This document shows positions 36,071 to 49,807 of a DNA stretch of 49,807 bases, piece by piece. A program made the translations under genes and the position numbers. Numbering within the stretch: the first letter of the stretch is position 1; each line of letters starts with the position of its first letter. The stretch is from Gemmatimonas sp. (GTDB taxonomy: Bacteria; Gemmatimonadota; Gemmatimonadetes; Gemmatimonadales; Gemmatimonadaceae), in contig JANNVQ010000009.1 in NCBI GenBank assembly GCA_031414535.1, positions 1 to 49,807 of the forward strand. Reading direction: 5' to 3'. Below the pieces are notes generated by a model. That model saw only the letters and a list, made by a program, of their open reading frames with translations. It was not told the origin of the DNA and did not search any database.

Positions 36071-36087
36071 GGCCGCCGCGGACGCGA

Positions 36088-36378
36088 CTAGAACGCGCGC
36101 GGTGTTTGCTGGCGACCGTGCACAATGGTCAAGAGTTCGATGGCGTCCGCGTGCACTTTGTAGAACACGCGATGATGCTCGATGACCAACTCGCGCACGT
36201 CGAGATCCTCGCCTTCCGGCGCATGCTTGCCCATCAGCGGATGTGCACAGAGTAACTGCAGGCGATAGTCGATGTGGGCGACCACGCTTTCGGCGTAGAT
36301 GTCCGAGGTGCGGCTGATAAACTCGGCAATGCCCGCGAGGTCCGTGACGGCGCGCTCCGTCCAGCGGAGCGGGAGCAC
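36088..36378 (-). CDS. RelE/ParE-family toxin (cassette 9)
   Basis: LRWTERAVTDL..IAEFI...HPLMG...VRELVIEHHRVFY...LTIVHGRQ. Confidence 0.9.
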   Translation of the reverse strand: MLPLRWTERAVTDLAGIAEFISRTSDIYAESVVAHIDYRLQLLCAHPLMGKHAPEGEDLDVRELVIEHHRVFYKVHADAIELLTIVHGRQQTPRAF

Positions 36379-36581
36379 TAGGCGGGACGACGAATGCGCG
36401 CGCGGACGCGAGCGAGTGCCGTCTCGTGGTCGACGGTGCGACCCGCGGTCGCATCGGCGAGGCCCTGTTCGATGGCCTGGCGCACATAGACCTCATACGC
36501 GAGATCATCCCAGCCAGCCCCTTGGGGGAGCTGGTCGACCAGTCGCTTCGCGTCGTCGCGGATGTCAGGGGCGTCGGCCAT
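36378..36581 (-). CDS. Putative antitoxin (cassette 9)
   Basis: LVDQLP...WDDLAYEVYVRQAIEQGLAD...GRTVDHE; coupled to the toxin. Confidence 0.85.
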   Translation of the reverse strand: MADAPDIRDDAKRLVDQLPQGAGWDDLAYEVYVRQAIEQGLADATAGRTVDHETALARVRARIRRPA

Positions 36582-36647
36582 GCTTGGAACCTGTGGCAGA
36601 AGAGTGCGGGGCGCAACTGCGGCGACCGCGAAGTCAGTGGCGAGTCC

Positions 36648-36783
36648 GTGTAACGTTTGCTTCTGCTGTGGACGCTCATATAAAAAGGGTTTGGCGGGGC
36701 CTCCGCAACCAAGCCCAGGTCATCGCGGAGGCCCCGCCAAACCCATCCGCACCCGCGGCCATCGGCAGCAAGCGTCGTTATGC
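36648..36783 (-). repeat. attC site 9
   Basis: gtgtaac...gttatgc; nearly identical to site 7. Confidence 0.9.
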
Positions 36784-36788
36784 GGCAC

Positions 36789-37517
36789 TCACGGCTGCTT
36801 GAGTGGGGGCTTCCGAATCTCCGCGAGCTTCTGGTTAAGAGCCGAGCGTTTCGCTGCAGCACGAGCGGGAGCGACGTAGAAGTGGTCCGCGAGCTCCTCC
36901 AGTACGTCGAGAAGCCATTCCGCCTCGCCTTCCTCGACGTCGACCACCGCACCAGAGTTCGTGGACTTCGTGGGATGCGCTGCGAAGTTGCCTACCTGCC
37001 GAATCGCATCCACGTTCTGAGCAATCTCATGGGGGAGGCGAGGCAAGATCTCCTCGATCTGATCCGCGAGGTCTCTTTTCGTAACTTTGCCAGCATCAAC
37101 AAGAATGAACTGAAGGCAGCGCCGCGAGAGCGCTGCGGATGCCTTTCTGCTCATGGGCAGCACTGCCACCGCTTCCTGAAAGTCGGCAACGAAAGTCGGG
37201 GCGGCGGAGGCAACCTCCGCGGGCAGCGGGCGCTGAGCGCCCGCGGGAAAGACCAAACCCGGTGTGCGAAGCGTGGTTCCGTTGGGCGCCGTGGCCGAGA
37301 CGACGCTGACAATCGGAAGCCCGCAGATAGGGCAGCTACACGAAGCTACGTTCACGCGTGAGCCGCCGGTGAGGAGCACGGTCAATTCATTCGCGTCCCA
37401 TGACCGCGAGAACGCAGTGATCGAAGCACTCTCGAACCGCACGCCTGTTCGGCAGTGGGGGCAGATGCCAGTTGAACCACTTCGTGGGGAACGCACCAGT
37501 AAGCCTCCAGTCCGCAT
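36789..37517 (-). CDS. DUF4145 (HEPN-like) protein with N-terminal CxxC...CxxC Zn ribbon (cassette 10)
   Basis: CPHC...CPIC; ASAALSRRCLQ; IRQVGNFAAHP. The ATG lies within the GTTATGC core. Confidence 0.82.
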   Translation of the reverse strand: MRTGGLLVRSPRSGSTGICPHCRTGVRFESASITAFSRSWDANELTVLLTGGSRVNVASCSCPICGLPIVSVVSATAPNGTTLRTPGLVFPAGAQRPLPAEVASAAPTFVADFQEAVAVLPMSRKASAALSRRCLQFILVDAGKVTKRDLADQIEEILPRLPHEIAQNVDAIRQVGNFAAHPTKSTNSGAVVDVEEGEAEWLLDVLEELADHFYVAPARAAAKRSALNQKLAEIRKPPLKQP

Positions 37518-37651
37518 AACGTGGGCTTCTGCTGTGAACGCTTCAATAAGACGCAGTTGCGGGGCGGCCGCTAGACCGCTCGTCGGTCGATAAGGCGGCC
37601 GCCCCGCAACTGCCACCGCACCGCGTTCATCGGCAGCAAGCGTCGTTATGG
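37514..37651 (-). repeat. attC site 10
   Basis: gcataac...gcagttgcgggg/ccccgcaactgc...gttatgg. Confidence 0.9.
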
Positions 37652-38164
37652 CGCGCGCGGCGGCGCGTCGGGAATGCGCTCCCATATGAGCACCACGCCA
37701 TTCGTCGTTGGCTGGCCGTCCGGCCCCGTGATGACACGAAGCTCAACCCGATTGCCCGGCAAGAAGCGATAGCCGCGGACCAAGGAGCGGCCGATCCAAT
37801 CGGGATCCATCGCGCCCTCGACTCGGTGCGTGACCGTGCGTGCCACGGTATCAACGGCGTAAGTGCCGTAGTAGGTCGCAAGGCCGATGAGTGCAATCCG
37901 CGCTGCCTCCGGGGTTGCCTGGGTCCACTCGCGAACCCCGAGGCCCGGTCTCCGCTCGTCGTAGAGTTGCGCCGACATCACACCGTTCGCCGAGTACCGG
38001 ATGATACCGAGTGGTCGGGGGCCCCAGTAGAGGCTCACACTTCCGGCAGAGTCTGGCTGTACGATGGACACGAGACGCCAGTCGCCCACTAGCGCTGAAG
38101 TGCCTTGGGCGCGCGCCGCGACTGGGAGAGCGACAAGCAGCAGGGCCAGGCAGTTGCGAAGCAT
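37646..38164 (-). CDS. Secreted lipocalin-like domain protein (cassette 11)
   Basis: LVGDWRLVS...GIIRYSANGVMSAQL...YYGTY.VD...VTHRV...LIWER. Confidence 0.85.
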   Translation of the reverse strand: MLRNCLALLLVALPVAARAQGTSALVGDWRLVSIVQPDSAGSVSLYWGPRPLGIIRYSANGVMSAQLYDERRPGLGVREWTQATPEAARIALIGLATYYGTYAVDTVARTVTHRVEGAMDPDWIGRSLVRGYRFLPGNRVELRVITGPDGQPTTNGVVLIWERIPDAPPRAP

Positions 38165-38223
38165 CTAGAATCCTCAGGACCGTGTGCAAAAGATCGTGCT
38201 TCGCGGCGATGTCAGTTGTGTCG

Positions 38224-38361
38224 CCATAACGTGTGCTTCTGCTGTGAACGCTTCAATAAGAAGGGTTTGGCGGGGCGTCCGCAACAAGTCCTAGGTCATC
38301 ACGGACGCCCCGCCAAACCCAATCTGCACCCGCGTTCATCGGCAGCAAGCGACCGTTATGT
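38224..38361 (-). repeat. attC site 11
   Basis: ccataac...gttatgt. Confidence 0.9.
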
Positions 38362-38447
38362 TGCGCATCGCAGCCGCTGACACCCGGACATTGGCGAGCG
38401 TTCGGCAGAGCATTACAAGCCAGCCCCCCGCGCAGTAGATTCTGGGC

Positions 38448-39050
38448 GTGGAGCACTACGCGCAGATGCTCGCAATCGCCCGGACCATCAGCCGCGTCCC
38501 CGATGACGCGGAAGATCTGTTGCAGGATGCGCTGCTCGAGGCCCTTCGCAGCGGCCGCACCGACTTCTCGCAGACGGCGACGCTGCGGTGGCTGACCGGC
38601 ACCATGCGAAACTTGGCCGCCATGGCGGCGCGCACCGCGTATCGCCGCCGACTGCGGGACACGTCGTGGTCCGGTGAGCGCGATGCCGTGGAGACGCCAC
38701 GCCTAATCCCCTCGCCGTGGCGCGATGACCCGCGAGTCGCTGAAGCCGTAGCGGCTCTGCCGCCCTCGCTGCGCCGCGTGGCGGAGTTGGCGCTTTCAGG
38801 CCTAGACCGCGACGAAATCGCTTGGATCCTTGGCGTCTCCGACGTCGCGCTCCGCCAACGCATCTCGGCGCTGCGCAAGCGATTGGGCGCCCTCGACTCC
38901 GCGCCGACGGCCCCTGGTGGCCTTCACCTTCCTATTGGTCTCATCCGGCGCGCCCTTCTCCCCGTCGTACGGGCCAAGCAGTCGCCCGGGAGCCACGACC
39001 CGGATGGACACCTCATTGTGCTGACCCAGCGGCCGCGCCCCGGAACCTGA
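38448..39050 (+). CDS. ECF-type RNA polymerase sigma factor (cassette 12, inverted orientation)
   Basis: Region 2 DAEDLLQDALL...WL; region 4 LPPSLRRV...EIAWILGVS..ALRQRIS; C-terminal extension SHDPDGHL. Confidence 0.85.
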   Translation: MEHYAQMLAIARTISRVPDDAEDLLQDALLEALRSGRTDFSQTATLRWLTGTMRNLAAMAARTAYRRRLRDTSWSGERDAVETPRLIPSPWRDDPRVAEAVAALPPSLRRVAELALSGLDRDEIAWILGVSDVALRQRISALRKRLGALDSAPTAPGGLHLPIGLIRRALLPVVRAKQSPGSHDPDGHLIVLTQRPRPGT

Positions 39051-39125
39051 GCGACCTCACGATTCCGGCGTCGGCGGCAACAGAGAAGTGTTCACGAGTC
39101 ACCCTCCCTAAGATCTGAGGTCACA

Positions 39126-39506
39126 ATGCTTCGCAATGTTCGAATCGATAACGTCGTCTTCATGGTTGCCGATCTGGCGCGCACCGAGCGCTTTTACGCC
39201 GGCGTCGTCGGTCTCACCGTGGAGCGGCAAGCCGATGACGACGGCGGCCCATCCATGCTGATCGCCCGCATCCCTGGCAATCTTGATCTCATCTTCTTTG
39301 AGGGCGAGGTGAAGCCGGGCAACTCGCCGATCCTTGTTTTTACGCTCGCGGAGGGCGGAATCGACAGCGTGGTCGATGAACTCGTCGCGGCCGGGTCGAC
39401 GATCGTTACGCCAGTCAGCCATGCTCCCGGTGGCTGGAGCGCAGACTTTGCGGATCCCGATGGGTACGTGCTCAGCGTGTACCAAGAGGCGCGTTTGGCG
39501 CGCTAG
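39126..39506 (+). CDS. VOC/glyoxalase-family protein (cassette 12)
   Basis: IDNVVFMVADLARTERFY...FADPDGY; GAGG RBS. Confidence 0.9.
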   Translation: MLRNVRIDNVVFMVADLARTERFYAGVVGLTVERQADDDGGPSMLIARIPGNLDLIFFEGEVKPGNSPILVFTLAEGGIDSVVDELVAAGSTIVTPVSHAPGGWSADFADPDGYVLSVYQEARLAR

Positions 39507-39694
39507 AAGGCGGATCCGATTGGGGTCGCATGTCTCGAATTGCTGCCGACCGCTCTCGCTCGGGCGGCGGCTGGCCAAACGTCGTCGAATATCGGCCGAG
39601 ACGGGTATTGACGAACGGACTTCGGACACCCCAGCTCGCTTCGCGTTCAAACGTGCCATCTGATCTCGTCGCCTATCGGATCTCGGCTTCGTCA

Positions 39695-39789
39695 ACATAA
39701 CGTGTGCTTCTGCTGCGGACACTCCATAAAATGCGGCCGCGCAGCGGCCGCTTCAATAGCGTGGCCGTCGGCAGCAAGATTCGTTATGC
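39695..39789 (-). repeat. attC site 12 (short 95-bp type)
   Basis: acataac...gttatgc; similar to site 3. Confidence 0.88.
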
Positions 39790-39800
39790 CGCGACCCTCA

Positions 39801-40853
39801 TCACGGGCGTTGTACAAGATTCCACAACTGCACCTGCTCGACGCTCTCGGGCGTGACCGCCCGCCCCAGCAGCCAGTCGGCGCCGACTGCCCACACACTG
39901 AGCGATGCCGGCAGTTGAAGCACTGCCCGTGGCTTACCAGTTGCATCCAGCACCTGCCAGCGCCGCATCGCATCCGGCGTGACGAGGGTATCAGCGATCC
40001 AAATCTCACCTGACAGGCCCGCAACGATCTCTGCGCGAAGCACGGGCTGCGGCGTACTTGATGAAATGGCCGCTGGCGGCGCCATCTGCACGGTGTCCCA
40101 CCGCGAATCGAGCAGACGCAGCGCAGCGGGGGAGTCACTCGCAGACAACAGCAACTGCCCTGCGCTTTGCGTGACAAGCGCACGGGGACCGGACTCAAGC
40201 TTTCGAATGCGGACGTCGGTTGCAGACACTATCCGCTCCCACCAAGCTCCGCCGATAGGCGGACTGATGGCCCGCGCTTCGCCGACGGCGGACACGAGCA
40301 CAACCGAAAACGAATCGCGCGCCATCCCGCCTGGCGCGAGCTGCCGCGGATCGGCTCGCCGCGCGATGCCGAGTGCGAACCCACCGTCGACGACACCCAG
40401 CCACTCCGCTCCACCGTACTCGGCCGCATCAATGCGGATCGCGCGTGCGAAGCGGCCGGAAGCATCGAAGATGGAGATGCGTAGCGCGAGCGCGTCGAGC
40501 GCGGCAATGGAGTCGCCAAGCGCCGTAATCCACGTCAGGTGTTGAAACTCGCCGGGGCCGCCACCGGGCCGACCAATCCGCTGAACGAGTGTGCCGGACG
40601 TGTCATAGATGCGAATCTCCGACGGCGTGCCGTTCGCGACGACGAGTCCTCGCGCATTGCGGAATCCACTGAATACCCGCGCGAGGATCTGTGCGTCCTC
40701 GCCACTCTCCTGTCCAATCGCGACTGCGAGCCGCGCGTCGAGTGTGTCCGTCGGCGCGGCTCCGCTGCGGCTCGATGCGGCGTCTCTCGCACACGCAATG
40801 CTGCTCGCCAACGCAAGTGCAGCGAACAGTCGGACAGGCGTCAACCGGGTCAA
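39801..40853 (-). CDS. 6-bladed beta-propeller lipoprotein (cassette 13)
   Basis: Lipobox SIAC; IRIYDTSG...IGRPGGGPGEF...RISIFDASGRF. TTG start after AAGGAG. Confidence 0.78.
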   Translation of the reverse strand: MTRLTPVRLFAALALASSIACARDAASSRSGAAPTDTLDARLAVAIGQESGEDAQILARVFSGFRNARGLVVANGTPSEIRIYDTSGTLVQRIGRPGGGPGEFQHLTWITALGDSIAALDALALRISIFDASGRFARAIRIDAAEYGGAEWLGVVDGGFALGIARRADPRQLAPGGMARDSFSVVLVSAVGEARAISPPIGGAWWERIVSATDVRIRKLESGPRALVTQSAGQLLLSASDSPAALRLLDSRWDTVQMAPPAAISSSTPQPVLRAEIVAGLSGEIWIADTLVTPDAMRRWQVLDATGKPRAVLQLPASLSVWAVGADWLLGRAVTPESVEQVQLWNLVQRP

Positions 40854-40903
40854 GAGGGCAACTCCTTGATGACAACGGATTGCCGGCGATGCGTCGCGCG
40901 TCG

Positions 40904-41042
40904 GCATAACGTTTGCTTCTGCTGTCAACGCTACAATATAAAGCTGTTGTGGGGCGGCCGCTCGGCTGTCCCATGTTTCACAGTGCGGCCGCCCCACAAC
41001 TGCATCCGCACCCGCGTTCATCAGCAGCAAGCTTCGTTAGGG
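40904..41042 (-). repeat. attC site 13
   Basis: gcataac...gttaggg. Confidence 0.9.
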
Positions 41043-41055
41043 CGCGGGGCGCAGA

Positions 41056-42054
41056 TCAAAGCGTCTGAGGGCCCGCTCTCCACGTCTCAATGCGCTTCGC
41101 CCGGGGAGTGAGAAAGGCAAGTAGTGCATCGCTAGGCGAGGGGTCAATCACAATAGCCCGCTCAAACCTCGTTACCCACGAGATTAGATCGGCGAACTCA
41201 GTGCGGTCTGGCTCGGAGAAGGAGAAGCCGGCGATCACAAGCGTGTCCGCCTCAGCGGATAGATGTCGAAAGTATCGTGTTGCGAGACGCATCCAGCTGA
41301 GATGCTGTCCGAAGCGATTGAACTCTCCAGGAAGTACGATATCCGCAACAGTGCGCACATTGAGCAATTCGTGGTCGGTCATGCAGCGCTGAGGTACGTC
41401 GGCAAGCGCTGCTTCGGTCGCGCGAGGGTAATCGACGGCTTCGAAAGGGCTGTCGGCCGATGCCGCATTGCGGAGCTCAAACCCGTCTGGTGCAAAGTGA
41501 ATGGACCCGTGTGGCTTGCAAATGGGGATGCCGACCTGCCCTTCTGGGCGTCGATGCCACTCGGGCCACCCGCCGGCGCCAGGGTGGAAATGCTGAACGC
41601 GGTTACGAGTCAACGCGCGCTCCAATACCAGGTCGTAGTTCCAGCTAAGAGCAACGTGGAGATTCTTCCGATACCGCTCGAGCCATTTGCGCCAGATCCA
41701 CCGCTCCATTGACGAGCGGTCGAGCGCCCGTTGGTAGGTCGAGTATGCGAGAGCAAGGAAGTGGCGCAGGTCCTGAAGGCGACTGTCTAAACCGGCGAGT
41801 TCCGGATGCTTCGTATCCGCCGTGGGAACGTCCTCCAGCAACGACTGAATGAGCGCAAACTCCCCCTCGGGCGAAGCGCGGCTACGGCTCTCCAACCATG
41901 TTCCGAGGTGCGGAAGGCTGTCGAGTAGCGGAGTTCCGAGTCGTGGATGCGAGGGCCGCATCGATAGCGGGCTGCTTGGATGAACACCGACGCCAGCGTG
42001 CAGAGCGCGATCGATGGAGAGTCCGTTTCCGCACACAAACGCGATGCGCATCAC
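41056..42054 (-). CDS. SIR2-like (SIR2_2) domain protein, candidate NADase (cassette 14)
   Basis: FVCGNGLS, SWNYD, KPHGS and IAGFSFSEPD are the sirtuin-fold motifs in the expected order. Confidence 0.8.
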   Translation of the reverse strand: MMRIAFVCGNGLSIDRALHAGVGVHPSSPLSMRPSHPRLGTPLLDSLPHLGTWLESRSRASPEGEFALIQSLLEDVPTADTKHPELAGLDSRLQDLRHFLALAYSTYQRALDRSSMERWIWRKWLERYRKNLHVALSWNYDLVLERALTRNRVQHFHPGAGGWPEWHRRPEGQVGIPICKPHGSIHFAPDGFELRNAASADSPFEAVDYPRATEAALADVPQRCMTDHELLNVRTVADIVLPGEFNRFGQHLSWMRLATRYFRHLSAEADTLVIAGFSFSEPDRTEFADLISWVTRFERAIVIDPSPSDALLAFLTPRAKRIETWRAGPQTL

Positions 42055-42094
42055 CGGTGCTATCAGAGGAATGCAATGAAGGGGGACTACGTCG

Positions 42095-42229
42095 CCCTAA
42101 CGTGTGCTTCTGCTGTGAACGCTCCAATAAGAAGGGTTTGGCGGGGCCGCCGCAACCAGCCTAGGGCATCACGGCGGCCCCGCCAAACCCAATCCGCACC
42201 GCGTTCATCGGCAGCAAGCGTCGTTAGCC
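42095..42229 (-). repeat. attC site 14
   Basis: ccctaac...gttagcc. Confidence 0.9.
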
Positions 42230-42249
42230 GGCGCCACTCGGTGGCATTC

Positions 42250-42552
42250 CTATGGTCGCTTGCGACAGTCCTCAATCTCAGCCATCGCGATGCCCACAAG
42301 GAGCAGGCAAGCAAGCTGAGCGAAGCTGGTTCCGCCAAGCGGAAGGACGGCACTGCTCTGGGGAATAGCGTGCTCAATGGAAAGAAGGAGCAACTCTATC
42401 GACAGGGGAACACGGATGAATCGTGGCATACTCGCCTCTGGTTGAAGTACGAGTATGGGTAAAGCAAAAACCAGTGAAAGTCGCCGCCGCAGTTGGGAAT
42501 AAGGGCGTGCCCGGAAAACATTCTCCGTACTTCCCGATTTGCTCGCATTCAT
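42250..42552 (-). CDS. Possible small hydrophobic protein (cassette 15)
   Basis: ATG immediately follows the methyltransferase stop and the ORF fills the gap to the attC; no recognisable motif. Confidence 0.3.
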   Translation of the reverse strand: MNASKSGSTENVFRARPYSQLRRRLSLVFALPILVLQPEASMPRFIRVPLSIELLLLSIEHAIPQSSAVLPLGGTSFAQLACLLLVGIAMAEIEDCRKRP

Positions 42553-43959
42553 TCACTTAGCACGTCTAAGTAGCATTTGAACGAACTGTCGATTGCTTGG
42601 GGCCGGAACCGTACAGAGGTGCTCCCAGCCGAAGCCAGCCGCGAAAGACACGAGCGACGGCAGATCGTACCGAGCAGATGTAAGCAGCGTCACGTCTCTG
42701 TCGTTAGCTGTCAGGTGAAGTGTGACAGACCAGCTACCTGGCACATCACTCAACGCCGGACAGGCGTTCTCTACCACGCGAACGACTACTCGCGCCTGAC
42801 CGTCGCGTAAAGATTCGTGCAAACCAAAGGCGTCGAGAACGGCGCGCACACCCGGAGCCACGAAGTTCCGCATTTCTGGATGATCGTACTTCTTTACGAG
42901 TGCATCGCGTAAGGTCGAGGATGATTGACCGCCAATCGTATCGACGCTGACTATCAGCAGGTCGCCAGCGTGAGCGGTCAAGTTCAGTGACCGAAAGAAG
43001 GCTGCCTCGCGCAGGTTTCCGATGGTGCCACCCGTGATTGCGAACAGCACGGATTTGTCCCGTACGAAGGCTGCGGGACCACTGCCGAGTGCCAGAACGT
43101 CTTTGACCACATACTTGAACTCCACCCGATCGCGGAGGTCTGGTGAGGCCTTGGCTCTTTCCAGAATGCGAGACGATTGTTCCAGCATCGGGTAGTTGAT
43201 ATCAACCAGTGAATACTGAAGCGGGGCGCCGGAGGTGTGGTCGCGTCCCACGAGCGAGCGAACAAGGATTAGGTCCTTGCTGGGGGCGCCACCGCCGGCC
43301 AGCATGACCGCAGAGCGGACGGACGAAGTGCAGAGGGCCTGCTTCCACTGCTCCGTCTCCGTCAAGGCCCGCAACGCGTCCTTGCACTGGTCGTAGGTGT
43401 GGTATGACTCAGCGGCGACAAGTTCTCTCCACACCTCCGCAGCCTCAGGCGTAGAGTAATAGTGACGCGTGTCTAGATGTCCTGCCCGGGCTCCGGAGGG
43501 AAGTGTGACGAGGTCGATGTCGTGCAGCACTTCGACAATTCGCCTGTGCGGGCTCGACGAGCGTTCCGCACTCGCGCTAGCTGACATCGATACTACGGCG
43601 ACTCCGTTGCTTGGTGTCAACGCGTCGTTGTCAACACGCGGAAAGGACTGCCGATACTTCGTGCGGTGTGGTTCGGGCAGAAGATCAATGAACTCCTCAA
43701 GCGATGAGTGCAGGATATCGGAGCCGGTCACGTCAGCTGCGCAACCAAGCTTTTCAGCGAGCAGCTTTAGGAATGGCAAGTACTTCTTGTACGGCCGGCT
43801 CTTGTGCCACTTGCGCATCGCTACTGCTGTGTCGTGCTTAAGGCTCTGTTCGCTCGCCTTCGTGTAGACCTTGTCGACGACATCGCCGGGGCTAGACGCG
43901 TCAAGTATGCGGATAATGATTCTCCGCTTCTCGGGCCAGTGCCAGTAACGCTTGCTCAT
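42553..43959 (-). CDS. EgtD-like (Methyltransf_33) SAM-dependent methyltransferase with unknown N-terminal domain (cassette 15)
   Basis: LDTRHYY...W..L...SY, GGGAPSKD, YSLVDIN, GGTIGNL, LLIVSVD...KY, SARY; about 150-aa N-terminal extension. Confidence 0.75.
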   Translation of the reverse strand: MSKRYWHWPEKRRIIIRILDASSPGDVVDKVYTKASEQSLKHDTAVAMRKWHKSRPYKKYLPFLKLLAEKLGCAADVTGSDILHSSLEEFIDLLPEPHRTKYRQSFPRVDNDALTPSNGVAVVSMSASASAERSSSPHRRIVEVLHDIDLVTLPSGARAGHLDTRHYYSTPEAAEVWRELVAAESYHTYDQCKDALRALTETEQWKQALCTSSVRSAVMLAGGGAPSKDLILVRSLVGRDHTSGAPLQYSLVDINYPMLEQSSRILERAKASPDLRDRVEFKYVVKDVLALGSGPAAFVRDKSVLFAITGGTIGNLREAAFFRSLNLTAHAGDLLIVSVDTIGGQSSSTLRDALVKKYDHPEMRNFVAPGVRAVLDAFGLHESLRDGQARVVVRVVENACPALSDVPGSWSVTLHLTANDRDVTLLTSARYDLPSLVSFAAGFGWEHLCTVPAPSNRQFVQMLLRRAK

Positions 43960-43981
43960 CGGTCAGCCCCCGTGGGTTGAG

Positions 43982-45406
43982 TTAACGTGTGGGTGGCGAT
44001 GCGCGCCTGAGGTAGATGACCGCGAAGTGTGCGAGGAAGCCCGCCAATATTCCAGGCGCGGCCTCGTTCAGATATGCATTGAATCCAAGCATCATCCAGC
44101 AGCTCGCGCAAAGGAAGCCCGCGACGATCGACGCCGATAGGGAAGTGGCTGAGAAGCGCCATCCAAGAAGACGAATAGCCATCGCCGGAGCAAGAGCAGA
44201 CCCCATAATCCCCACTGAACTCAACGCAAGATCCTTCACACTACCTCCCATTACCAACGAAAAGCCCATGGAAATGGCGCCCGCGAATGCTACGGTGCGC
44301 CAGAGCGCGCTGCGGTAGCGGACCGTCGCCTCGGGTAGTTGCCTGAGATCTCCAAGTATCGTCTGGGCAATCGCGACGAGGATGCTGTTAGAAGTGGCGG
44401 CAATCGTAGCGAATATATCGGCGGCAATGATGCCCGTTATGACGGGACCGGTCGTCATGCGATGGAATGTGCTGAGGCCCGCCTCCGGGTCTTCGAGTCC
44501 AGGCATCACGCCGCGAAGGATGATGCCAAACGCCGTCATAGCAATCCAAGTCCCTTGGACAAATACGAAGTAGATCCACCATGCAGAGCGCGTTTCTGAG
44601 GGCGAGGAACCGGCCATATAGCGCGTCAGCATCTGCGGCTGCCCAAGGCCGAAGCCGAGAGCAGCAGCCGCAAATCCAAGCGATGAGACAAGCGAGAGTA
44701 GAAGCCCGCCTTCTGGAACAATGTGAAGGAAGTCGGCGCCCGCGGATTGTAGCTCTTCTGCAAATGCAGGGCGGTGGCGTACGGCGGTAACTGTAACTGT
44801 TACGAGCGCTAGGGCGGTCCCCATGATACGGACAACCGCCTGTACAGTGTCGGCGTAGACGGACCCTCGAAAGCCGCCGAGCGAGCTGTATACGACGATT
44901 GTCGTTGCGAACAGCAGGAGAGCAGTCGAACCGTGGAGCGCAAAGGCGCCCGCGAGAAACTTCTCGCCTGAAAGCCATTGGGCAGAGACGTACCCACCAA
45001 GGCACAGCACCGAAATGACGCCGACCAGCCGCTTGATATTCCGCCGTGCTCCCGGCGAAAGCGAGGCAACGAGTATGTCCGTCGCGGTCGCAGCTTCATG
45101 GGTCCGCGCAGCGGAATTAATGCGATGCGGAAAGAGGTGCCAAAAGATTACGTCACCGACCAGCCATGCGGCTGGGAGCAGCAGCCAACGAGCACCCTCG
45201 GTATACCCCAAGCCCACTGCTGCCGTGACCACGAATCCGCTGTTTGCAGTCGCGCCGGCGCTTAGCCCGACGAGCCACTTGCTAAGACCCTGATTGGCGA
45301 GTGCGAGGCCGGAGCGGCGCGCTTCATGCGTGCGGCCGAGATAGGCCGCGGTGACTGTCGCAAGCAGGGTGACGACGAAGACGATGATCGCGAGAGAGTT
45401 GTCCAT
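43982..45406 (-). CDS. Sodium:solute symporter (PutP-like) (cassette 15)
   Basis: LVGLSAGATANSGF, YSSLGGFRGSVYADTVQ, FGLGQPQMLTRYMA, ATSNSIL; about 13 TM segments. Confidence 0.9.
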   Translation of the reverse strand: MDNSLAIIVFVVTLLATVTAAYLGRTHEARRSGLALANQGLSKWLVGLSAGATANSGFVVTAAVGLGYTEGARWLLLPAAWLVGDVIFWHLFPHRINSAARTHEAATATDILVASLSPGARRNIKRLVGVISVLCLGGYVSAQWLSGEKFLAGAFALHGSTALLLFATTIVVYSSLGGFRGSVYADTVQAVVRIMGTALALVTVTVTAVRHRPAFAEELQSAGADFLHIVPEGGLLLSLVSSLGFAAAALGFGLGQPQMLTRYMAGSSPSETRSAWWIYFVFVQGTWIAMTAFGIILRGVMPGLEDPEAGLSTFHRMTTGPVITGIIAADIFATIAATSNSILVAIAQTILGDLRQLPEATVRYRSALWRTVAFAGAISMGFSLVMGGSVKDLALSSVGIMGSALAPAMAIRLLGWRFSATSLSASIVAGFLCASCWMMLGFNAYLNEAAPGILAGFLAHFAVIYLRRASPPTR

Positions 45407-45657
45407 GGCGCAAGTGTCTGCCAGCACTGCGGGAAAGACTAGACCGTACCTGGGAAAGTTTGGGAATTCAAGTAAGCGAGCTCCGAATCATCACGCACCG
45501 ACCCTCTGTCGTCCCGAGCCCGCTGGGTGTGGTCGCGACTCCCTCACACGCCCCACTGTTGCACCCGTGGCTAAAAACGCCTGAGAGGTTGCGCGAGATT
45601 GCGCGGCGCCTGTCCTGAAGGCGTAACCGAAAGCACCAAATGGAGTAACTCGGACCA

Positions 45658-46524
45658 TCATTGTCCAAGACGCGGAACGCGCAGTCTGGCGCGCACCTGA
45701 GACGCGAGCCTTGGGCTGACCTGCTGGACCCAACTCAGCCGTCCCTCAATCTCCTCGAAGCCGTGAGACTCTGATCCGGCGCGGTACTCAACAATCAGTT
45801 GCTTGAGTGCCTTGATAAAGGCCGGAGAGGGCCGAAGGTCATCCGCCACCTCGATGCCTGTGATGAGGGCCCGCGCAGGAGACACTGCCGTGCGCGTCTT
45901 GTCAGGCTTCAGGTTCAGTCCAAGCAGTTTCAGCTTCTTCTCCGCGAGGTGCCGAAGGCGATTCTGTCGCGTCGGCGCGGAAATGGCAATGTCGTCAACG
46001 TAGCGTGAGTAGTTGCCGCCGGCTTCTAATGCTCCCTGAAGAATGGCGTCGTCGAGCTCTCGAAGTGTCACGTCAAGAAGCCACGGGCTCGTGGGCACTC
46101 CCTGCGGGAGCTGGTCATCGACGATCACAATGTCACACAAAGCCGTGGCGGCAGCCGATCCAAGGCCGGCCACCACGAGTGCACGCTCAACGTACCTGCG
46201 TCGTACGGAGGCGAAACAGCTGTGAACATCGCAAGTGAGGCACCAGCCAAACGAGATGTGAACGCGTGCATGCGACACCGCACCGGCGCCAGGTACCGCC
46301 ATCGCCGCCCGACTCACCTGAACGAGTGGACGCAAGCGGTTGAGTGCACGTCGCTGGACATCTCGCATTTGTCGGGGAGGAACGCGAAGCGTCCTTCCTG
46401 TTGCAAGAACCTTTCTGCGATAGAGGCTTGGCATCTTACGCCGCAGCACCCAAAGCTCGGTCGGAGTGAGCGCAAGAAGTGACGCAAGGTCGTCGTGCGT
46501 TTGGGGCAGGTCTCGCGCAGGCAC
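45658..46524 (-). CDS. Retron-type reverse transcriptase (cassette 15)
   Basis: TCDVHSCF, LPQGVPTSP, YSRYVDDIAIS, KPDKT; retron-like region X (HARVH, cf. NAxxH) and region Y (ITG, cf. VTG); 288 aa, RT domain only. Confidence 0.9.
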   Translation of the reverse strand: MPARDLPQTHDDLASLLALTPTELWVLRRKMPSLYRRKVLATGRTLRVPPRQMRDVQRRALNRLRPLVQVSRAAMAVPGAGAVSHARVHISFGWCLTCDVHSCFASVRRRYVERALVVAGLGSAAATALCDIVIVDDQLPQGVPTSPWLLDVTLRELDDAILQGALEAGGNYSRYVDDIAISAPTRQNRLRHLAEKKLKLLGLNLKPDKTRTAVSPARALITGIEVADDLRPSPAFIKALKQLIVEYRAGSESHGFEEIEGRLSWVQQVSPRLASQVRARLRVPRLGQ

Positions 46525-46530
46525 GTGCTG

Positions 46531-46833
46531 TCAATCCTCTCCAGCGCGCGCTAGATACTCGTTTAGTGCCTGAAGCGCATCGGTGGCAACGCTGCGCCCG
46601 AGTGTGTGCTCTAGATCCTTCGAGGTGATGCTGGAGAGGAGCAAGAGCCCAGGCGGGACGTGGAGTGCGCGACCGATTGCTCGGATGGCGGCAAGAGATG
46701 GTTCGCGCTCGGAGCGCTCCAGCCTCGAGAGCATGGCTGGCGAGAGATTGGCGGCTCTGGCAAGTGCCGCTGAGCTCAGGCCGCGCGCCTTTCGAAGGCG
46801 GCGGATGGTTGTTGCAAAATTCTTTGAGTCCAT
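46531..46833 (-). CDS. XRE/Cro-C1 helix-turn-helix protein (cassette 15)
   Basis: IRRLRKARGLS..ALARAANLSPAMLSRLERSEREPSLAAIRAIGRAL. Confidence 0.9.
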   Translation of the reverse strand: MDSKNFATTIRRLRKARGLSSAALARAANLSPAMLSRLERSEREPSLAAIRAIGRALHVPPGLLLLSSITSKDLEHTLGRSVATDALQALNEYLARAGED

Positions 46834-47105
46834 GGCGACGAAGGCCGGTATGAACGGATGAAGGCCTCGACCACGAGTTTCAATGCGAGTTCGGCAGCCT
46901 CTCGAATAACCACAGCGAGAACTTTCTTGGCTGCCTCACGAGAAAAGCCTGCCTGAGAGCGCGAAATACGAGCGCGCATTCGAGACAGCTTCGCCTTTAG
47001 CTCGAGCGAGGCCTTACGGTTGGTGCTTTGGTCGCTCTCAAGTTGCCTCTCCAACGCGCGGATGAGCTCCTTGAGTTTGACTTGCTGCACGGCGAGCGGG
47101 TCCAT
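46776..47105 (-). CDS. Small helical/coiled-coil protein, candidate retron effector (cassette 15)
   Basis: Strong SD GAAGGAGG 9 nt before the ATG; basic coiled coil followed by a hydrophobic helix; overlaps the HTH gene. Confidence 0.7.
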   Translation of the reverse strand: MDPLAVQQVKLKELIRALERQLESDQSTNRKASLELKAKLSRMRARISRSQAGFSREAAKKVLAVVIREAAELALKLVVEAFIRSYRPSSPWTQRILQQPSAAFERRAA

Positions 47106-47353
47106 GTCCTACGTCCTCCTTCTGGTTGAGGTGCTACAAACGCACCACGACCGAGTGTCGTGGTGACATCCGCTGACGTGTTCAGTCATGTGCTGACTGC
47201 AACCGTTCGGTCGACCGTAACGGCCATCGACCGCCTCTCGCCAATGAAGACGAGGTGACTACTAGTGTGACCGGCCGGAGAATCGTCCCCGGACCGACCG
47301 GACGTACGGTCCCCGACAAATAGCTCGGGGGAAGGAGGCATCATGGATCGCTC
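47094..47353 (-). ncRNA. Putative retron msr-msd-like structured RNA overlapping the small-protein start
   Basis: Terminal inverted repeats 47331-47353 and 47094-47122 enclose hairpins at 47143-47165, 47183-47199, 47208-47233, 47291-47312 and 47311-47330; lies upstream of the RT operon. Confidence 0.65.
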
Positions 47354-47489
47354 TTCGCATTCTCAAACAGCTGGACCGGAAATCCCGGTACGTGAATCTA
47401 GGCAAACGTCGACTGTGAGTCAATGGTCGCCCACGGGTCGGGGCTGACGGGCTAGTCCGGGCTATGTGGGCCGGTCCGCGCGCGCGTCC

Positions 47490-47631
47490 GGCTAACGTGT
47501 GCTTCTGCTGTGGACGCTTCAATAAGAAGCAGTTGTGGGGCGGCCGCTAGGCCGTGCGCTTGTACGAAATGGCGGCCGCCCCACAACTGCTCTCCTCACC
47601 TGCGGCCATCAGTCAGCAAGCGTCGTTAGGC
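47490..47631 (-). repeat. attC site 15
   Basis: ggctaac...gttaggc. Confidence 0.9.
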
Positions 47632-47651
47632 TGCACGCGCGCTAACGATCT

Positions 47652-48305
47652 CTACGCGCTCGGGCCATCCAACAAATGCCAGGCATGCTCGAACGAATGC
47701 GCTTGCTCCCGCAATGTGGAAACGCGCATGAGCTTCCGACCGCCGGGCGCGGTGTAACGGAGGCTACGCAACTGCTCGGCGGGTACAACGTAGACCTCCG
47801 GCGACTCCCAGGGAGAGCCAATGAGGTTGTTGTAGCAGACGAATGCGTAGAAATGATTCGCCGTGGACTCGCGGGCGTTGTCGATTGGCCATCCTGTCGC
47901 CCCGGCCAGTCCCTTCACATCGAGAGAGCACAGCTGGCCTGTGCGCGAAACGACCACCACGTCGACGGACTTCTTGTTGCCGAGGGTCAAGTTGGCCGTG
48001 AAGCCCAAACGATGAAGAAGCGAGAGGATGTGGAACTCAGCGGCCAAGTTCGTGTCGTATCCCTCTGGGGATTTCAAAGACGTACCGAGCCGCTCGTTGA
48101 TTTCGCGAGCCATCTTCGCGGCTTGCTCCGGAGTGGGCTGAGGCGTTCCGAATGCATCCGCCCCATCTTCACGCACCGCATAGTAGTTGCGCACGAGAGA
48201 TGGCGACACAAGTCCGCCAAGGTAGCGAATGGCCATGGGGTTGTTCTCCGCGGCCTCCGCAAAGTCGGCAACCGCCTGACGCCACGCTGCACGTCGACTC
48301 GTCAT
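47652..48305 (-). CDS. PD-(D/E)XK-like nuclease (cassette 16)
   Basis: AAEFHILSLLHRLG...KKSVDVVV...SLDVKG matches the E...D...(D/E)xK arrangement. Confidence 0.7.
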   Translation of the reverse strand: MTSRRAAWRQAVADFAEAAENNPMAIRYLGGLVSPSLVRNYYAVREDGADAFGTPQPTPEQAAKMAREINERLGTSLKSPEGYDTNLAAEFHILSLLHRLGFTANLTLGNKKSVDVVVVSRTGQLCSLDVKGLAGATGWPIDNARESTANHFYAFVCYNNLIGSPWESPEVYVVPAEQLRSLRYTAPGGRKLMRVSTLREQAHSFEHAWHLLDGPSA

Positions 48306-48319
48306 TACTCTCCTCGTCA

Positions 48320-48463
48320 GCCTAACGTGTGCTTCTGCTGTGGACGCTTCAATAAGAAGCAGTTGTGGGGCGGCCGCTAGGCCGTTCCATGCATATACTA
48401 AATCGCGGCCGCCCCACAACTGCTATCCTTGCACGCGGCCATCAGCAGCAAGCGTCGTTAGGC
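48320..48463 (-). repeat. attC site 16
   Basis: gcctaac...gttaggc. Confidence 0.9.
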
Positions 48464-48506
48464 TGCGCGCACCAGACGGCCGGTGACGCCCACCTCTCAG
48501 CACGGC

Positions 48507-48959
48507 TCAGGGGACGCGGAGTTTCTCGCCAAGGTCTGAGACACCCCACTCTTCGGCGACCTTACCGTCCTCGAACCGCGTGACGATCATGGTCTCCCAC
48601 GTGATCGTGCGCCCCGAGGCCGGCACGCCCATGAAATCCGCCTGATGGGTGCCGCGATGCGTGCGCAGCCAGGTGATGCGATCACCGTCCTTCGCGAGAA
48701 TCTGGATTTCGGTGCGAAGGTCGGGGAACGCCTTGCGGAGTTCGGCGACGAAGCCTTCGATCAGCTCGGGTCCTCCGCGCACCTCTCCGCCCCCCGAGTG
48801 GCCGACGTAGGAGGCGGCAAACGCGTCACGCGCGTAGGCCGCGTTGCCCTTGTTCAGTAGCTCATCGTTCGCCGTGCGGAGCGCGGGCTCCCAGTCGGCT
48901 GGCGGGGGGGCGCAGGCGCATAGCGCGAGTAACAGCGCCAAAGCCGAGACTGCTCGCAT
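48507..48959 (-). CDS. SnoaL-like ester cyclase lipoprotein (cassette 17)
   Basis: Lipobox CAC; AFPDL...GD...GTH..FMGVPASGR...RFEDGKVAEEW; AGGAGG RBS. Confidence 0.9.
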   Translation of the reverse strand: MRAVSALALLLALCACAPPPADWEPALRTANDELLNKGNAAYARDAFAASYVGHSGGGEVRGGPELIEGFVAELRKAFPDLRTEIQILAKDGDRITWLRTHRGTHQADFMGVPASGRTITWETMIVTRFEDGKVAEEWGVSDLGEKLRVP

Positions 48960-49039
48960 ACTTCCTCCTTGAAGGGGTACCAGCCAGGTCCCGGGTATGG
49001 GACCAAATCCGTTCGAAGAAAGGCGAAAGCGGGATGTCA

Positions 49040-49177
49040 GCCTAACGTGTGCTTCTGCTGTGAACGCTTCAATAGAAAGCAGTTGTGGGGCGGCCGCTAG
49101 GCCGTGCGTGTTCGGAATATCGGCCGCCCCACAACTGCATCCTTCGCCGCGTTCATCAGCAGCAAGCGTCGTTAGGG
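49040..49177 (-). repeat. attC site 17
   Basis: gcctaac...gttaggg. Confidence 0.9.
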
Positions 49178-49612
49178 CGCCGGCTCTGGGCGCTCGGCTG
49201 TTTCAAGTCGATCTCGCGATGGTGTGAGCGCACCTTGGCAGAGTATCGCACCAGCAATCAATACGCCGATGCACAGCACGATTGCCTGAATCCGCACAAC
49301 GACTGTGGGGGCGATGACGGCGCCCCACGCACAGAGCGCTGCTAAGGGAAGCGCGCTCAGACTGCCGACCAGCGCGCGCCGCACCGCACTCGTCGCCAAC
49401 GGCGCGGCTACAGCGAAAAGGAAGGCGCCGAGAATTGTGAGACCGAATACCAAAGTCGTCGCAGTATACGCGTCGGACGGCGCGCCTCCGTAAGTGCGCG
49501 TGGTACCATTCTTCCAGTCGACGAAGGGGATGGAAAGCACAAAGCATACGAGCACGACTGCAACGGCGATGAGTGCCGTGACGCGAAGTCGTCGGACGAG
49601 CGGCCACTCCAT
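49172..49612 (-). CDS. Hypothetical membrane protein, about 4 TM (cassette 18)
   Basis: Hydrophobic ORF from MEWPLV; stop inside the attC core. Confidence 0.65.
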   Translation of the reverse strand: MEWPLVRRLRVTALIAVAVVLVCFVLSIPFVDWKNGTTRTYGGAPSDAYTATTLVFGLTILGAFLFAVAAPLATSAVRRALVGSLSALPLAALCAWGAVIAPTVVVRIQAIVLCIGVLIAGAILCQGALTPSRDRLETAERPEPAP

Positions 49613-49677
49613 GAATGGCGCGTCGGAGTTTGCGGAGGTCGGCAAAGAGTGCGAAGTCCCTTCGTGCAATCGAGTCG

Positions 49678-49807
49678 CCCTAACGTGTGCTTCTGCTGCA
49701 GCCGCTTCCATAAAAAGCAGTTGTGGGGCAGCCGCAGGCTGTCCCATAGGATAGTGCTTGCGCCCCACAACTGCATCCTTAGCGCGGCTGACGGCAGCAA
49801 GCGTCGT
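49678..49807 (-). repeat. attC site 18 (cut by the window end)
   Basis: ccctaacgtgtgcttctgctgc...ggcagcaagcgtcgt. Confidence 0.88.

Follow-up and report, generated by a model that had tools for sequence, protein, structure and literature searches.

Type VI retrons reportedly correspond to a class of Mestre et al. from 2020. As described in parts of two recent reports (bioRxiv 10.1101/2025.10.22.683967; 10.64898/2026.04.27.721009), they consist of a leader RNA followed by genes for a small protein, which is the toxin, an HTH protein and a reverse transcriptase (RT). Retron-Vpa2, Retron-Eco12 and Retron-Sen3 are examples, the Type VI clade of RTs is RT-Clade 3, and published small-protein clusters are cl2075, cl2760, cl3272 and cl3897. 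In the hybrid RNA of Retron-Vpa2, the ribosome-binding site of the small protein is described as lying within a stem, and translational repression was proposed. For the main clades, the relevant passages of the Retron-Sen3 paper name Proteobacteria, Bacteroidetes and Pseudomonas; the word "integron" is absent from the main text of both papers. Defence systems are known cargo of integron cassettes, according to portions of a further study (bioRxiv 10.1101/2024.07.02.601719), whose passages on retrons concern phage escape mutants and not a retron cassette.

The window (the whole stretch of 49,807 nucleotides that we analyzed) carries 18 copies of an attC-like repeat in 30601–49807. We built a covariance model from 15 attCs of the window (41 base pairs) and scanned the whole window with filters off. 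The model recovered all 15 training sites at 119–149 bits, and it also scored a site cut off at the window end (49683–49807, 102.5 bits) and two short-type attC sites (64–66 bits). The sites at 42095..42230 (127.2 bits, E 1.3e-31) and 47490..47631 (135 bits, E 1.2e-33) fold as imperfect hairpins and belong to the attC family of the array. With the core patterns RYYYAAC and GTTRRRY, their cores were GTTAGCC at 42224–42230 and GGCTAAC at 47490–47496. These cores are perfectly complementary, as a first-pass annotation of this DNA had noted with the second core placed one base off, at 47489. By our reading, perfect complementarity holds in 15 of the 17 successive attC pairs, this pair included, and the other two had one mismatch; thus, the 5,395-bp cassette is bounded as its neighbors in the array are. 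Between 42231 and 47489 the model gave noise only (42276–42321, 9.4 bits, E 2.1; 42584–42665, 7.4 bits, E 7). With complementary cores and no internal attC, 42101–47495 is one cassette, as that annotation had proposed.

Start-to-start spacings of the repeat range from 635 to 1471 bp (n = 16), with 5395 bp as the sole exception, and the cassette is 3.7–8.5 times the length of the 16 remaining spacings, in line with the earlier description of it as several times longer than its neighbors. The position of the attC bulges indicates the recombining bottom strand. On the plus strand, the 3' arm of the consensus structure holds the unpaired bulges, so that the plus strand is the recombining bottom strand. 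With the minus strand taken as top strand, 42101 and 47495 are the crossover points between G and TT, and all genes of the cassette lie on the minus strand. The GC content of the cassette is 0.596 versus 0.652 in 1–29900 and 0.639 in the remaining array, which bears out the impression that it is richer in A/T. The same genome encodes an integron integrase (TIGR02249, 413.7 bits, cut-off 265) with adjoining attCs on contig C31, a different contig from that of this array, and attC-model matches were found on 17 contigs of the genome. In the public sequencing runs, which are available as contigs, the joints listed at attCs had sides shorter than 35 nt and were repeat artefacts. A SIR2_2-like cassette adjoins in the same integron. 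The features of the cassette are collected in Table 1.

Table 1. Features of the 5,395-bp cassette and its bounding sites (window coordinates)
Feature	Coordinates	Strand	Evidence or remarks
Whole integron cassette, crossover point to crossover point	42101..47495	-	5,395 bp
Cassette's own attC, 3' of the genes with the minus strand as top	42095..42230	-	Covariance model
Tail, methyltransferase stop to attC	42231..42552	-	322 bp, GC 0.553
Two-domain methyltransferase, 468 aa	42553..43959	-	PF10017, AlphaFold, Foldseek
SSF-family transporter, 481 aa	43982..45427	-	PF00474
Spacer between retron and SSF gene	45428..45657	-	230 bp; no attC, core site or terminator-like site found
Retron-type reverse transcriptase, 288 aa, YVDD	45658..46524	-	RVT_1, PADLOC, NCBIfam
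Cro/C1-type HTH protein, 100 aa, candidate antitoxin and partner of the RT	46531..46833	-	Pfam, PADLOC
Small protein (SP) of 109 aa, candidate toxic effector	46776..47105	-	ORF, relatives, gene order
Structured leader RNA, candidate msr-msd or 5' part of a Type VI hybrid RNA	47106..47388	-	Predicted fold
Promoter-like site TTGACT-17-TAGATT	47395..47423	-	Consensus scan, 9/12 matches
Attachment site (attC) of the upstream neighbor cassette; its final six bases (47495-47490) open the 5,395-bp cassette	47490..47631	-	Covariance model

The families agree with those named from the letters alone, namely a 109-aa ORF, HTH_3, RVT_1 with YVDD, SSF and a weakly matching Methyltransf_33, all co-oriented. 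SP is one of a conserved group of small proteins outside any Pfam family. A search of 1.84 billion representatives gave six relatives (E 2e-18 to 8e-4), which have the motifs MxDPLAV and AGFSR in common, along with a hydrophobic helix at the C terminus; in L110, a second genome from the family, an SP homologue stands in the same overlapping SP-HTH-RT order. The SP and HTH genes share 58 nt, and a gap of 6 nt separates the HTH gene from the RT start. Its product matches Pfam HTH_3 (3.4e-13) and, as the best of 16 PADLOC matches, HTH_VI (4.7e-15, profile positions 2–90 of 92).

The RT matches Pfam RVT_1 (6.2e-14) and PADLOC RT_VI (5.6e-33, 112.4 bits, positions 8–275 of 279). Partial matches to RT_III-A (5.6e-35, 119 bits) and RT_II-A (1.3e-34, 117.7 bits) exceed RT_VI by a few bits, which makes typing at the level of the RT ambiguous; 65 PADLOC RT models matched at E<=0.01, the best 25 of them spanning 1.9e-16 to 5.6e-35. 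NCBIfam retron models far outscored DRT and group II models, with the retron St85 RT at 3.9e-29, under that model's cut-off. The closest RT homologues (P0052–P0054) are 77–80% identical and lie on contigs of 1.9–6.2 kb, and most RT relatives examined are distant (22–35% identity). An HTH gene adjoins the RT relative in 4 of 7 loci from genomes of the same family and in 11 of 80 metagenome loci.

Upstream of SP, the segment 47489–47106 folds with a minimum free energy of -159.5 kcal/mol (z = -2.65), a stability that none of 100 shuffled versions attained. The predicted folds contain a closed multi-hairpin domain and sequestration of the Shine-Dalgarno (SD) sequence of SP. An anti-SD CCUCCUUC (47338–47331), exact over 8 nt and occurring once in the cassette, is predicted to pair with the SD GAAGGAGG (47122–47115). 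The predicted pairing probability of the SD was at least 0.99 in five of six transcript boundaries tried, and it was 0.998 compared with 0.60 +/- 0.17 in mononucleotide shuffles of the leader, of which 0 of 100 reached it. The fold is predicted from this one sequence, and no homologous leaders that would allow a covariation analysis were found. Inverted repeats of 9–10 nt are at chance level, and no a1/a2 pairing or msr/msd could be assigned. Rfam gave no match at E<=5 except chance miRNA and sRNA rows on or beside the attCs. Three promoter-like sites were found in the region versus 1.3 expected, with a consensus that was not made for this phylum, and the site at 47395..47423 is weakly suggestive of a promoter.

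These data suggest that 47429–45658, the 5' third of the cassette, is a complete and self-sufficient retron of a known type, Type VI-like, and the retron-like module recognized in the first reading indeed has Type VI-like parts in the published order. Because the layout is that of Type VI, with the small protein as toxin, no extra effector would be required. From its position and the two Type VI papers, we infer that SP is the toxin. Behind the promoter-like site, the folded leader of ∼280 nt would be the candidate template for reverse transcription and msDNA synthesis, and it would also base-pair with the ribosome-binding site of SP. By analogy with Retron-Vpa2 and Retron-Sen3, SP might be silenced by the RNA fold, neutralized by the HTH protein, or both, and phage infection might release it and lead to abortive infection.

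The transporter is a member of the SSF family (PF00474, 2.3e-23, 83.2 bits versus a cut-off of 22.8) and, like PutP and PanF, aligns to both of their profiles along its length. It was rejected as PutP (98.3 bits versus an equivalog cut-off of 515.5, about a fifth) and as PanF (93.5 bits versus 328, under a third). Since these scores are far under the equivalog cut-offs, the substrates of PutP and PanF cannot be transferred to it. Unlike in those systems, several loci show the transporter and methyltransferase genes overlapping or in translational coupling.

The methyltransferase matches PF10017 (Methyltransf_33) weakly and over residues 213–360 only (1.8e-6, 27.7 bits versus a gathering cut-off of 23). 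In the AlphaFold model (pLDDT 82 for the whole protein), residues 1–105 form a seven-helix HTH-like domain (pLDDT 88 alone), 107–139 a disordered linker and ∼150–468 an EgtD-fold SAM methyltransferase. The best Foldseek match was EgtD 4pio_B (E 7e-14, TM to target 0.63–0.68), and the family profile matches Mycobacterium tuberculosis EgtD 7scf (1.7e-6) in an alignment that brings the G-x-G and GxTIGN motifs of the two into register. In 22 sequences, G222, G224, D253 and GTIGN 311–315 are invariant. Thus, the enzyme resembles EgtD, the histidine N-alpha-methyltransferase, in fold, in the SAM-binding G-x-G and in the substrate-loop GxTIGN. However, the two are only 16–18% identical; the cassette enzyme adds the HTH-like domain of ∼105 aa and the linker, is paired with a transporter, and is not seen adjoining other ergothioneine genes. 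Orthology to EgtD was rejected (18.9 bits versus an egtD equivalog cut-off of 290.9). With fold and motifs in common and the equivalog score far below the cut-off, we regard the enzyme as a member of the superfamily and not as an EgtD orthologue.

The N-terminal domain had no Pfam match at E<=10 and no Foldseek match at E<=0.001; most VIA-align rows were Cro/C1-type HTH proteins, but with Z of only 3.2–4.8. The family comprises 50 proteins at E<=1e-5, with candidates drawn from 5.8 billion clusters, and 41 of the 50 carry a precomputed PF10017 label. A literature search found no published description of an SSF transporter with an HTH-like/EgtD-fold methyltransferase. Directly after the methyltransferase stop begins a 100-aa ORF (42552–42250) that has no Pfam match; nothing comparable follows the methyltransferase gene in 16 other loci, and the tail is probably non-coding or a remnant.

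Those 16 loci come from five phyla (Gemmatimonadota, Acidobacteriota, Alphaproteobacteria, Phycisphaerales, Colwellia). An SSF gene lies directly upstream of the methyltransferase gene in 14 of them (43–61% identity; 12 intact, one a fragment and one frameshifted), and the flanking genes vary by locus; at 5 of the 16 loci they include integrases, transposases or recombinases. No RT was present at any of the 16 pair loci, and RVT_1 was found in 0 of 97 neighboring ORFs. Conversely, neither SSF nor methyltransferase genes were found beside RT relatives in 80 metagenome loci, 42 of which have at least 1.5 kb downstream, and the pair was absent from the 7 loci in genomes of the same family, that is, from all 87 RT loci, a set that leaves out the closest homologues P0052–P0054. 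In run X4, from another study, a 4,449-nt contig matches only 45704–47429 of the window (∼94% identical, 100 differences in 1,726 nt), and its remaining 2,628 and 95 nt lie outside the alignment. On this genomic evidence, the pair is an independent two-gene operon that is rare, horizontally mobile and uncharacterized.

The retron and the pair are alike in GC (0.607 versus 0.592) and GC3 (0.63–0.67), and the outer cores are complementary; both findings are consistent with the two having long travelled together. Between the RT and SSF genes no terminator-like site was found, so the two may be co-transcribed. We consider it probable that the cassette combines two functionally independent modules, a Type VI-like retron and an autonomous transporter/methyltransferase operon. 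Because a complete retron of a known type adjoins an unrelated and self-contained pair, we read them as two passengers and not as a new kind of retron. Our best guess is that the pair handles an amino-acid-like solute, which would enter through the SSF transporter and be N-methylated by the enzyme, with the N-terminal domain in a regulatory role.

The first-pass annotation had also raised the capture of two defence modules together. The capture of two modules together is supported by their independence elsewhere. A defence role of the second module is not supported: PADLOC had no model matching the SSF or methyltransferase protein, and PADLOC matches at E<=1e-5 were limited to 5 of 97 neighboring ORFs, mostly generic (kinase, radical SAM, HTH). 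The neighboring genes examined were not visibly linked to defence. That the pair is an undescribed anti-phage or conflict system, and the cassette a two-system defence cassette, is unlikely in our view. The rarity of the family, its patchy spread over the five phyla, the mobility genes near the pair, a GC3 below that of the neighbors in one locus (L012) and the proximity to GAP1-N2, YhcG nuclease (PDC-S02) and PIN proteins at three loci all speak for it, as does an integron setting, known to house defence systems (bioRxiv 10.1101/2024.07.02.601719, in part), beside a retron and the SIR2_2-like cassette. Against this, the two closest pair loci (L006, L007) lie among housekeeping-type genes (AsnA, Memo/AMMECR1, D-serine dehydratase-like), and metabolism is the simpler reading of a full 481-aa solute transporter joined to a small-molecule methyltransferase whose active site is conserved.

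A version in which the pair is an undescribed mobile system acting in conflict between genomes, packaged with the retron through selection for a combined defence cassette, strikes us as quite unlikely. We keep it because the pair is rare, crosses phyla, is often beside recombinases and has an architecture for which no description was found, and because it and the retron are alike in composition and cassette history. For example, a metabolite or signal would then be imported and methylated to starve, poison or sense the phage.

As to how the modules came together, a retron cassette and an SSF-methyltransferase cassette may have fused through loss of the intervening attC, an origin that we hold equally improbable. 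The independence of the modules elsewhere favors it, as does a 25-nt stretch of the spacer (45548–45572) that is 76% like the attC inner repeat (family D8), for which the covariance model gives no backing. A cryptic attC at 45430–45650 had been named as a possible finding, but no model match at E<=10 was found there, and in a regular-expression scan of 45428–45657 neither RYYYAAC nor GTTRRRY occurred on either strand. The outer cores left by such a fusion would stem from different cassettes and match by chance only, in an estimated ∼1 in 8–10 cases given the variety of cores in the array; here they are perfectly complementary. The composite retron put forward at first, in which transporter and methyltransferase would serve the RT as membrane or metabolic accessories or as effectors, is highly improbable: co-orientation within one cassette, a 230-bp spacer lacking a terminator-like site, similar GC and GC3, and complementary cores that allow the unit to move as one are outweighed by co-occurrence, the check that the first-pass annotation had itself proposed, at 0 of 87 RT and 0 of 16 pair loci, an effector and antitoxin set of Type VI already in place, and a run X4 contig that matches the retron part only.

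Taken together with the preferred reading of two independent modules, one shared cassette is not evidence of one shared system, and a tempting false lead is removed, since the retron already holds the published Type VI parts list. The locus adds a Type VI-like retron, borne on an integron cassette, from a phylum not mentioned in the available portions of the Type VI papers, and the predicted anti-SD/SD lock would fit the translational-repression model that those portions propose for Retron-Vpa2. It also shows that a cassette in a sedentary integron can exceed 5 kb and hold more than one operon, and it defines a small, conserved and uncharacterized two-gene module, an SSF transporter with an HTH-like/EgtD-fold methyltransferase, that is mobile across at least five phyla.

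Compared with the described integron defence cassettes, as far as the cited passages present them, the locus likewise has a defence system packed between attC sites as one cassette of a large array; it differs in holding five genes, including a second, unrelated operon. Compared with Type VI retrons, it has the same order of parts (an RNA, here predicted to be structured, then small protein, Cro/C1 HTH protein and RT), genes that overlap or abut, an RT with YxDD, an SP with a hydrophobic C-terminal helix and, as in the Vpa2 hybrid RNA, the SP ribosome-binding site within a predicted stem. It differs from them in its host, a Gemmatimonadota-like MAG judging from the best homologues, in an RT whose type is ambiguous by HMM, in an SP of 109 aa and in being carried in an integron cassette.

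The window is an entire 49.8-kb contig of a 3.7-Mb genome in 58 contigs, and repeat analysis revealed 18 copies of a ~137-nt repeat between 30601 and 49807. Every repeat carried an xxxTAAC core at one end and a GTTAxxx core at the other; read from the core listing, the right core was the exact complement of the next left core in 15 of 17 adjacent pairs and differed by one mismatch in the other two. Repeats with complementary outer cores are the classical integron-cassette signature. The repeats started 635–1471 bp apart, with the sole exception of the 5395-bp cassette studied here, whose cores (GTTAGCC, 42224–42230; GGCTAAC, 47490–47496) are among the exact complements. A covariance model was trained on 15 attCs of the window and run over the whole window with filters off. 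The training sites scored 119–149 bits, the shortened terminal site 102.5 bits and two short-type sites 64–66 bits, and between 42231 and 47489 the model returned no attC and only two noise rows (9.4 bits, E 2.1; 7.4 bits, E 7). The first-pass annotation had described a single cassette and named a cryptic attC at 45430–45650 as the observation that would speak against it; the model gave zero matches there at E ≤ 10, and a regex scan of the 230-bp spacer between the reverse transcriptase (RT) gene and the gene of the sodium:solute symporter family (SSF) transporter found no RYYYAAC or GTTRRRY core. The single cassette therefore stands. A 25-nt, 76% match to attC in this spacer was supported by neither the covariance model nor the core-site/hairpin scan and was rejected, as was the sole core pair inside the cassette (46185–46345), which lies within the RT gene, has no model match and folds more weakly than the true attCs (−0.37 to −0.40 versus −0.48 to −0.63 kcal/mol per nt).

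The limits proposed for the cassette, 42101 and 47495, are the crossover points if the minus strand is the attC top strand. The orientation of an attC is given by the position of its unpaired bulges, and the minus-strand assignment fits both the gene orientation and the unpaired bulges in the plus-strand 3' arm. The A/T richness noted earlier relative to the left half was borne out by calculation (GC 0.596, versus 0.652 in the left 30 kb of the window). An integron integrase is encoded on a separate contig of the genome (TIGR02249; 413.7 bits, cut-off 265), and this attC model matches 17 contigs (124 matches, both strands counted). On the integrase contig (C31:45625–48795), the integrase is followed by attCs at 47329–47465 and 48660–48795 in a model orientation opposite to that in the window, as would be expected if the integrase were transcribed in the direction of its cassettes.

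Several further features were observed around the array. Short-type attCs of ~95 nt (32082–32176 and 39695–39789) have the same cores and outer arms and another inner part, so that attCs of at least two length classes occur in the array, the long class with two inner-stem variants. A solitary full-length attC of the same family (1421–1557; 86.3 bits, E 9e-21) lies 29 kb from the array beside a Phenol_MetA_deg-like gene, and the intervening region (about 1.6–29.9 kb) holds core-type genes, namely KaiC/KaiB, PAS histidine kinases, a TonB receptor and a penicillin amidase. Weaker attC-like matches were seen at 18001–18104 (24 bits) and 28427–28499 (15.9 bits). Within 28741–29998, an IS30-like transposase (HTH_38 and rve) lies against the distal end of the array, where only an attC right arm is recognisable (29936–29998), suggesting that this end was cut by an IS30-like insertion sequence. 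The product of the neighbouring cassette (41056–42054, minus strand), 332 aa long, matches SIR2_2 below threshold (22.1 bits versus 24.5) and PADLOC Aga_SIR2/SIR2 weakly; this may be a single-gene defence cassette.

The retron features of the cassette are listed in the table. For the HTH protein, HTH_VI was the best of 16 PADLOC matches (4.7e-15, positions 2–90 of 92), and the RT matched RT_VI end to end (5.6e-33, positions 8–275 of 279), with NCBIfam retron models scoring far above those for DRT and group II introns. Partial PADLOC matches to RT_III-A and RT_II-A scored a few bits above RT_VI; typing from the RT sequence is thus ambiguous, which weighs against our reading of the cassette. A search of 1.84 billion representatives found six relatives of the small protein (SP; E 2e-18 to 8e-4), which have in common MxDPLAV, AGFSR and a hydrophobic C-terminal helix. 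Judged by these relatives, the SP frame is a genuine, rare protein family. At L110, an RT-relative locus in another genome of the same family, the SP homologue is 30% identical and the overlapping SP-HTH-RT order is the same. Downstream of these three genes, L110 (G450:C74) also has an open frame at 2016–3734, 573 aa or more in length, which contains a P-loop-like GxxGxGKT motif and overlaps the RT 3' end in another frame. A prediction of the HTH-SP complex scored 0.02, weighing neither for nor against binding. We take this first module to be a complete Type VI-like retron, a retron type that is already known.

Retron features of the cassette
Feature	Position	Strand	Remark
Promoter-like site	47423–47395	minus	upstream of SP
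SP ORF, 109 aa	47105–46776	minus	
Cro/C1 HTH protein, 100 aa	46833–46531	minus	PADLOC HTH_VI
RT, 288 aa, YVDD	46524–45658	minus	PADLOC RT_VI

The leader folds more stably than its shuffles (z = −2.65; single sequence). In the predicted fold of this one sequence, the SP Shine-Dalgarno (SD) sequence GAAGGAGG (47122–47115) pairs with an exact anti-SD (47338–47331), and the helix closes a multi-hairpin domain of ~200 nt. The SD pairing probability was at least 0.99 at five of the six transcript boundaries tried, and the value of 0.998 compares with 0.60 ± 0.17 in 100 leader shuffles, none of which reached it. The predicted structure comes from one sequence and has no covariation support, which weighs against our reading of the cassette. 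A non-coding similarity comparison found nothing like the leader, the RT-SSF spacer or the tail in other loci, and an Rfam search of 42000–47700 (E ≤ 5) found no retron msr family, only chance miRNA/sRNA rows on or beside attC hairpins. Long-range repeats of the a1/a2 kind were set aside: inverted repeats of 9–10 nt are present, and about two such pairs are expected by chance per 1 kb.

The first-pass annotation had regarded the SSF and methyltransferase genes as possible partners of the retron that should recur beside RT homologues. This expectation failed from both sides. Neither an SSF nor a methyltransferase gene occurred in any of 80 metagenome loci with RT relatives (22–35% identity; at least 1.5 kb downstream of the RT in 42), 11 of which had an HTH gene; among seven RT relatives in genomes of the same family, HTH was present in four, SP in one and the pair in none. 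Conversely, a tblastn search detected no RT within 10 kb at any of 16 methyltransferase loci, and RVT_1 matched not one of the 97 ORFs called in the ~4 kb around the pair.

These 16 loci came from a scan of species-representative genomes and belong to Gemmatimonadaceae, Acidobacteriota (Terracidiphilus, Bryobacterales, Ca. Angelobacter), Caulobacter and another alphaproteobacterium, Phycisphaerales and Colwellia. The family of this methyltransferase has few members: an indexed search found 50 proteins (E ≤ 1e-5), and it was detected in three of 401 genomes of the phylum, this one included. An SSF gene, 43–61% identical to that of the window, lies directly upstream in 14 of the 16 loci. Two of these SSF genes are damaged, at L013 as a C-terminal fragment and at L016 by a frameshift; the other 12 are intact. 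At L011 the contig begins within the methyltransferase gene, and at L014 the methyltransferase gene is 5'-truncated and abuts a DDE transposase. In several loci the two genes of the pair overlap by a few bases. The flanking genes vary by locus and include integrases, transposases or serine recombinases in five; flanking ORFs were alike between close relatives alone, so that no conserved third gene accompanies the pair, and none of the other pair loci has an equivalent of the 100-aa ORF in the window. PADLOC matched only five of the 97 nearby ORFs, and the attC type of this genome gave one noise match across the 16 pair loci and seven RT loci. At L009, the neighbour of the pair (4998–7610) is an 870-aa protein in which GAP1-N2 and GAP1-M domains were recognised, along with a phage-integrase fragment, a setting that points to a mobile island. 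On our reading, the pair is probably an autonomous operon that moves horizontally.

The 481-aa protein belongs to the SSF transporters; identification as PutP or PanF was rejected on scores far below both cut-offs. The 468-aa protein matches Methyltransf_33 weakly. In its AlphaFold model (pLDDT 82), the C-terminal ~320 residues adopt an EgtD fold (best Foldseek match 4pio_B, E 7e-14). Both the SAM-binding G-x-G and the substrate loop GxTIGN align with M. tuberculosis EgtD and are invariant in 22 family members; conservation of these catalytic motifs speaks for an active enzyme rather than a mere sensor. Residues 1 to ~105 are predicted to make up a domain of their own with seven helices, after which comes a disordered linker. 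A model of this domain by itself reached pLDDT 88. The domain had no Pfam or Foldseek match and ESM Atlas features of at most 0.82, and most rows of a wide VIA-align search were Cro/C1-type HTH proteins (HigA, SinR, P22 c2, 434 repressor, CapH, C-proteins), though at a Z of only 3.2–4.8, a lead towards an HTH-like fold. Tentatively, and with the odds rather against it, the transporter would take up an amino-acid-like solute coupled to Na+, the enzyme would N-methylate it to a betaine-type product and the N-terminal domain would regulate the operon. A literature search found no description of such an SSF and HTH-like/EgtD-fold pair, the only part of the cassette that may be new biology.

We consider it quite probable that the cassette holds two independent modules. 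Two further points weigh against this reading: most RT relatives examined were distant, the context counts having left out the closest homologues (P0052–P0054, 77–80% identity, on short contigs), and no terminator lies between RT and SSF, so that in this cassette one transcript may span the retron and the pair. As to origin, we favour that already adjacent DNA was captured, or that one of the modules inserted into a cassette already present. A fusion of a retron cassette and an SSF-methyltransferase cassette through loss of the intervening attC is improbable: the outer cores would then match by chance alone, estimated at 1 in 8–10, and no attC remnant is detectable. The equal GC and GC3 of both halves suggest that they have travelled together for some time.

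Public metagenome runs were compared with the stretch. Two freshwater-sediment runs of one study contained 96% and 81% of its sampled words, and either may represent the sample from which the stretch came. A second study's root metagenome (X4) has a contig of 4,449 nt that matches 45704–47429 (100 differences over 1,726 nt), whereas its two other stretches, of 2,628 and 95 nt, were not aligned to the window. Near-identity thus begins in the leader, next to the promoter-like site, and ends 46 nt before the RT stop codon, so that the block is the retron and nothing else. A run of a third study (X3) held pieces at 92–99% identity between 45814 and 47322 only. Over 42366–45497, X3, X4 and a further run, X5, gave no cover or traces alone at ≥85% likeness, which is not evidence of absence. 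Joints of 42226–42235 to 47479–47493 were rejected as excision products, their sides being short and within attC repeats. In another study's root and soil metagenomes, bins containing attCs (42105–42365 and others) reached summed contig depths of hundreds to thousands, indicating that this attC family is abundant in soil communities.

The gene layout of Type VI retrons is described exactly as here in the accessible text of two preprints (bioRxiv 10.1101/2025.10.22.683967; 10.64898/2026.04.27.721009). According to these preprints, the SP coding sequence of Retron-Vpa2 lies within a 'hybrid RNA' and is translationally repressed, and the SP of Retron-Sen3 is neutralised by the HTH protein. By analogy, the SP of the cassette would be a toxic effector held off by the leader fold and/or the HTH protein; RT, leader and HTH protein would form a sensing complex, and infection would free the toxin. 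The main texts of both preprints make no mention of integrons, symporters or such methyltransferases, and defence systems in integron cassettes have been described elsewhere (passages of bioRxiv 10.1101/2024.07.02.601719). The retron of this cassette shares its gene layout with Type VI retrons; its host and its integron vehicle are unusual.
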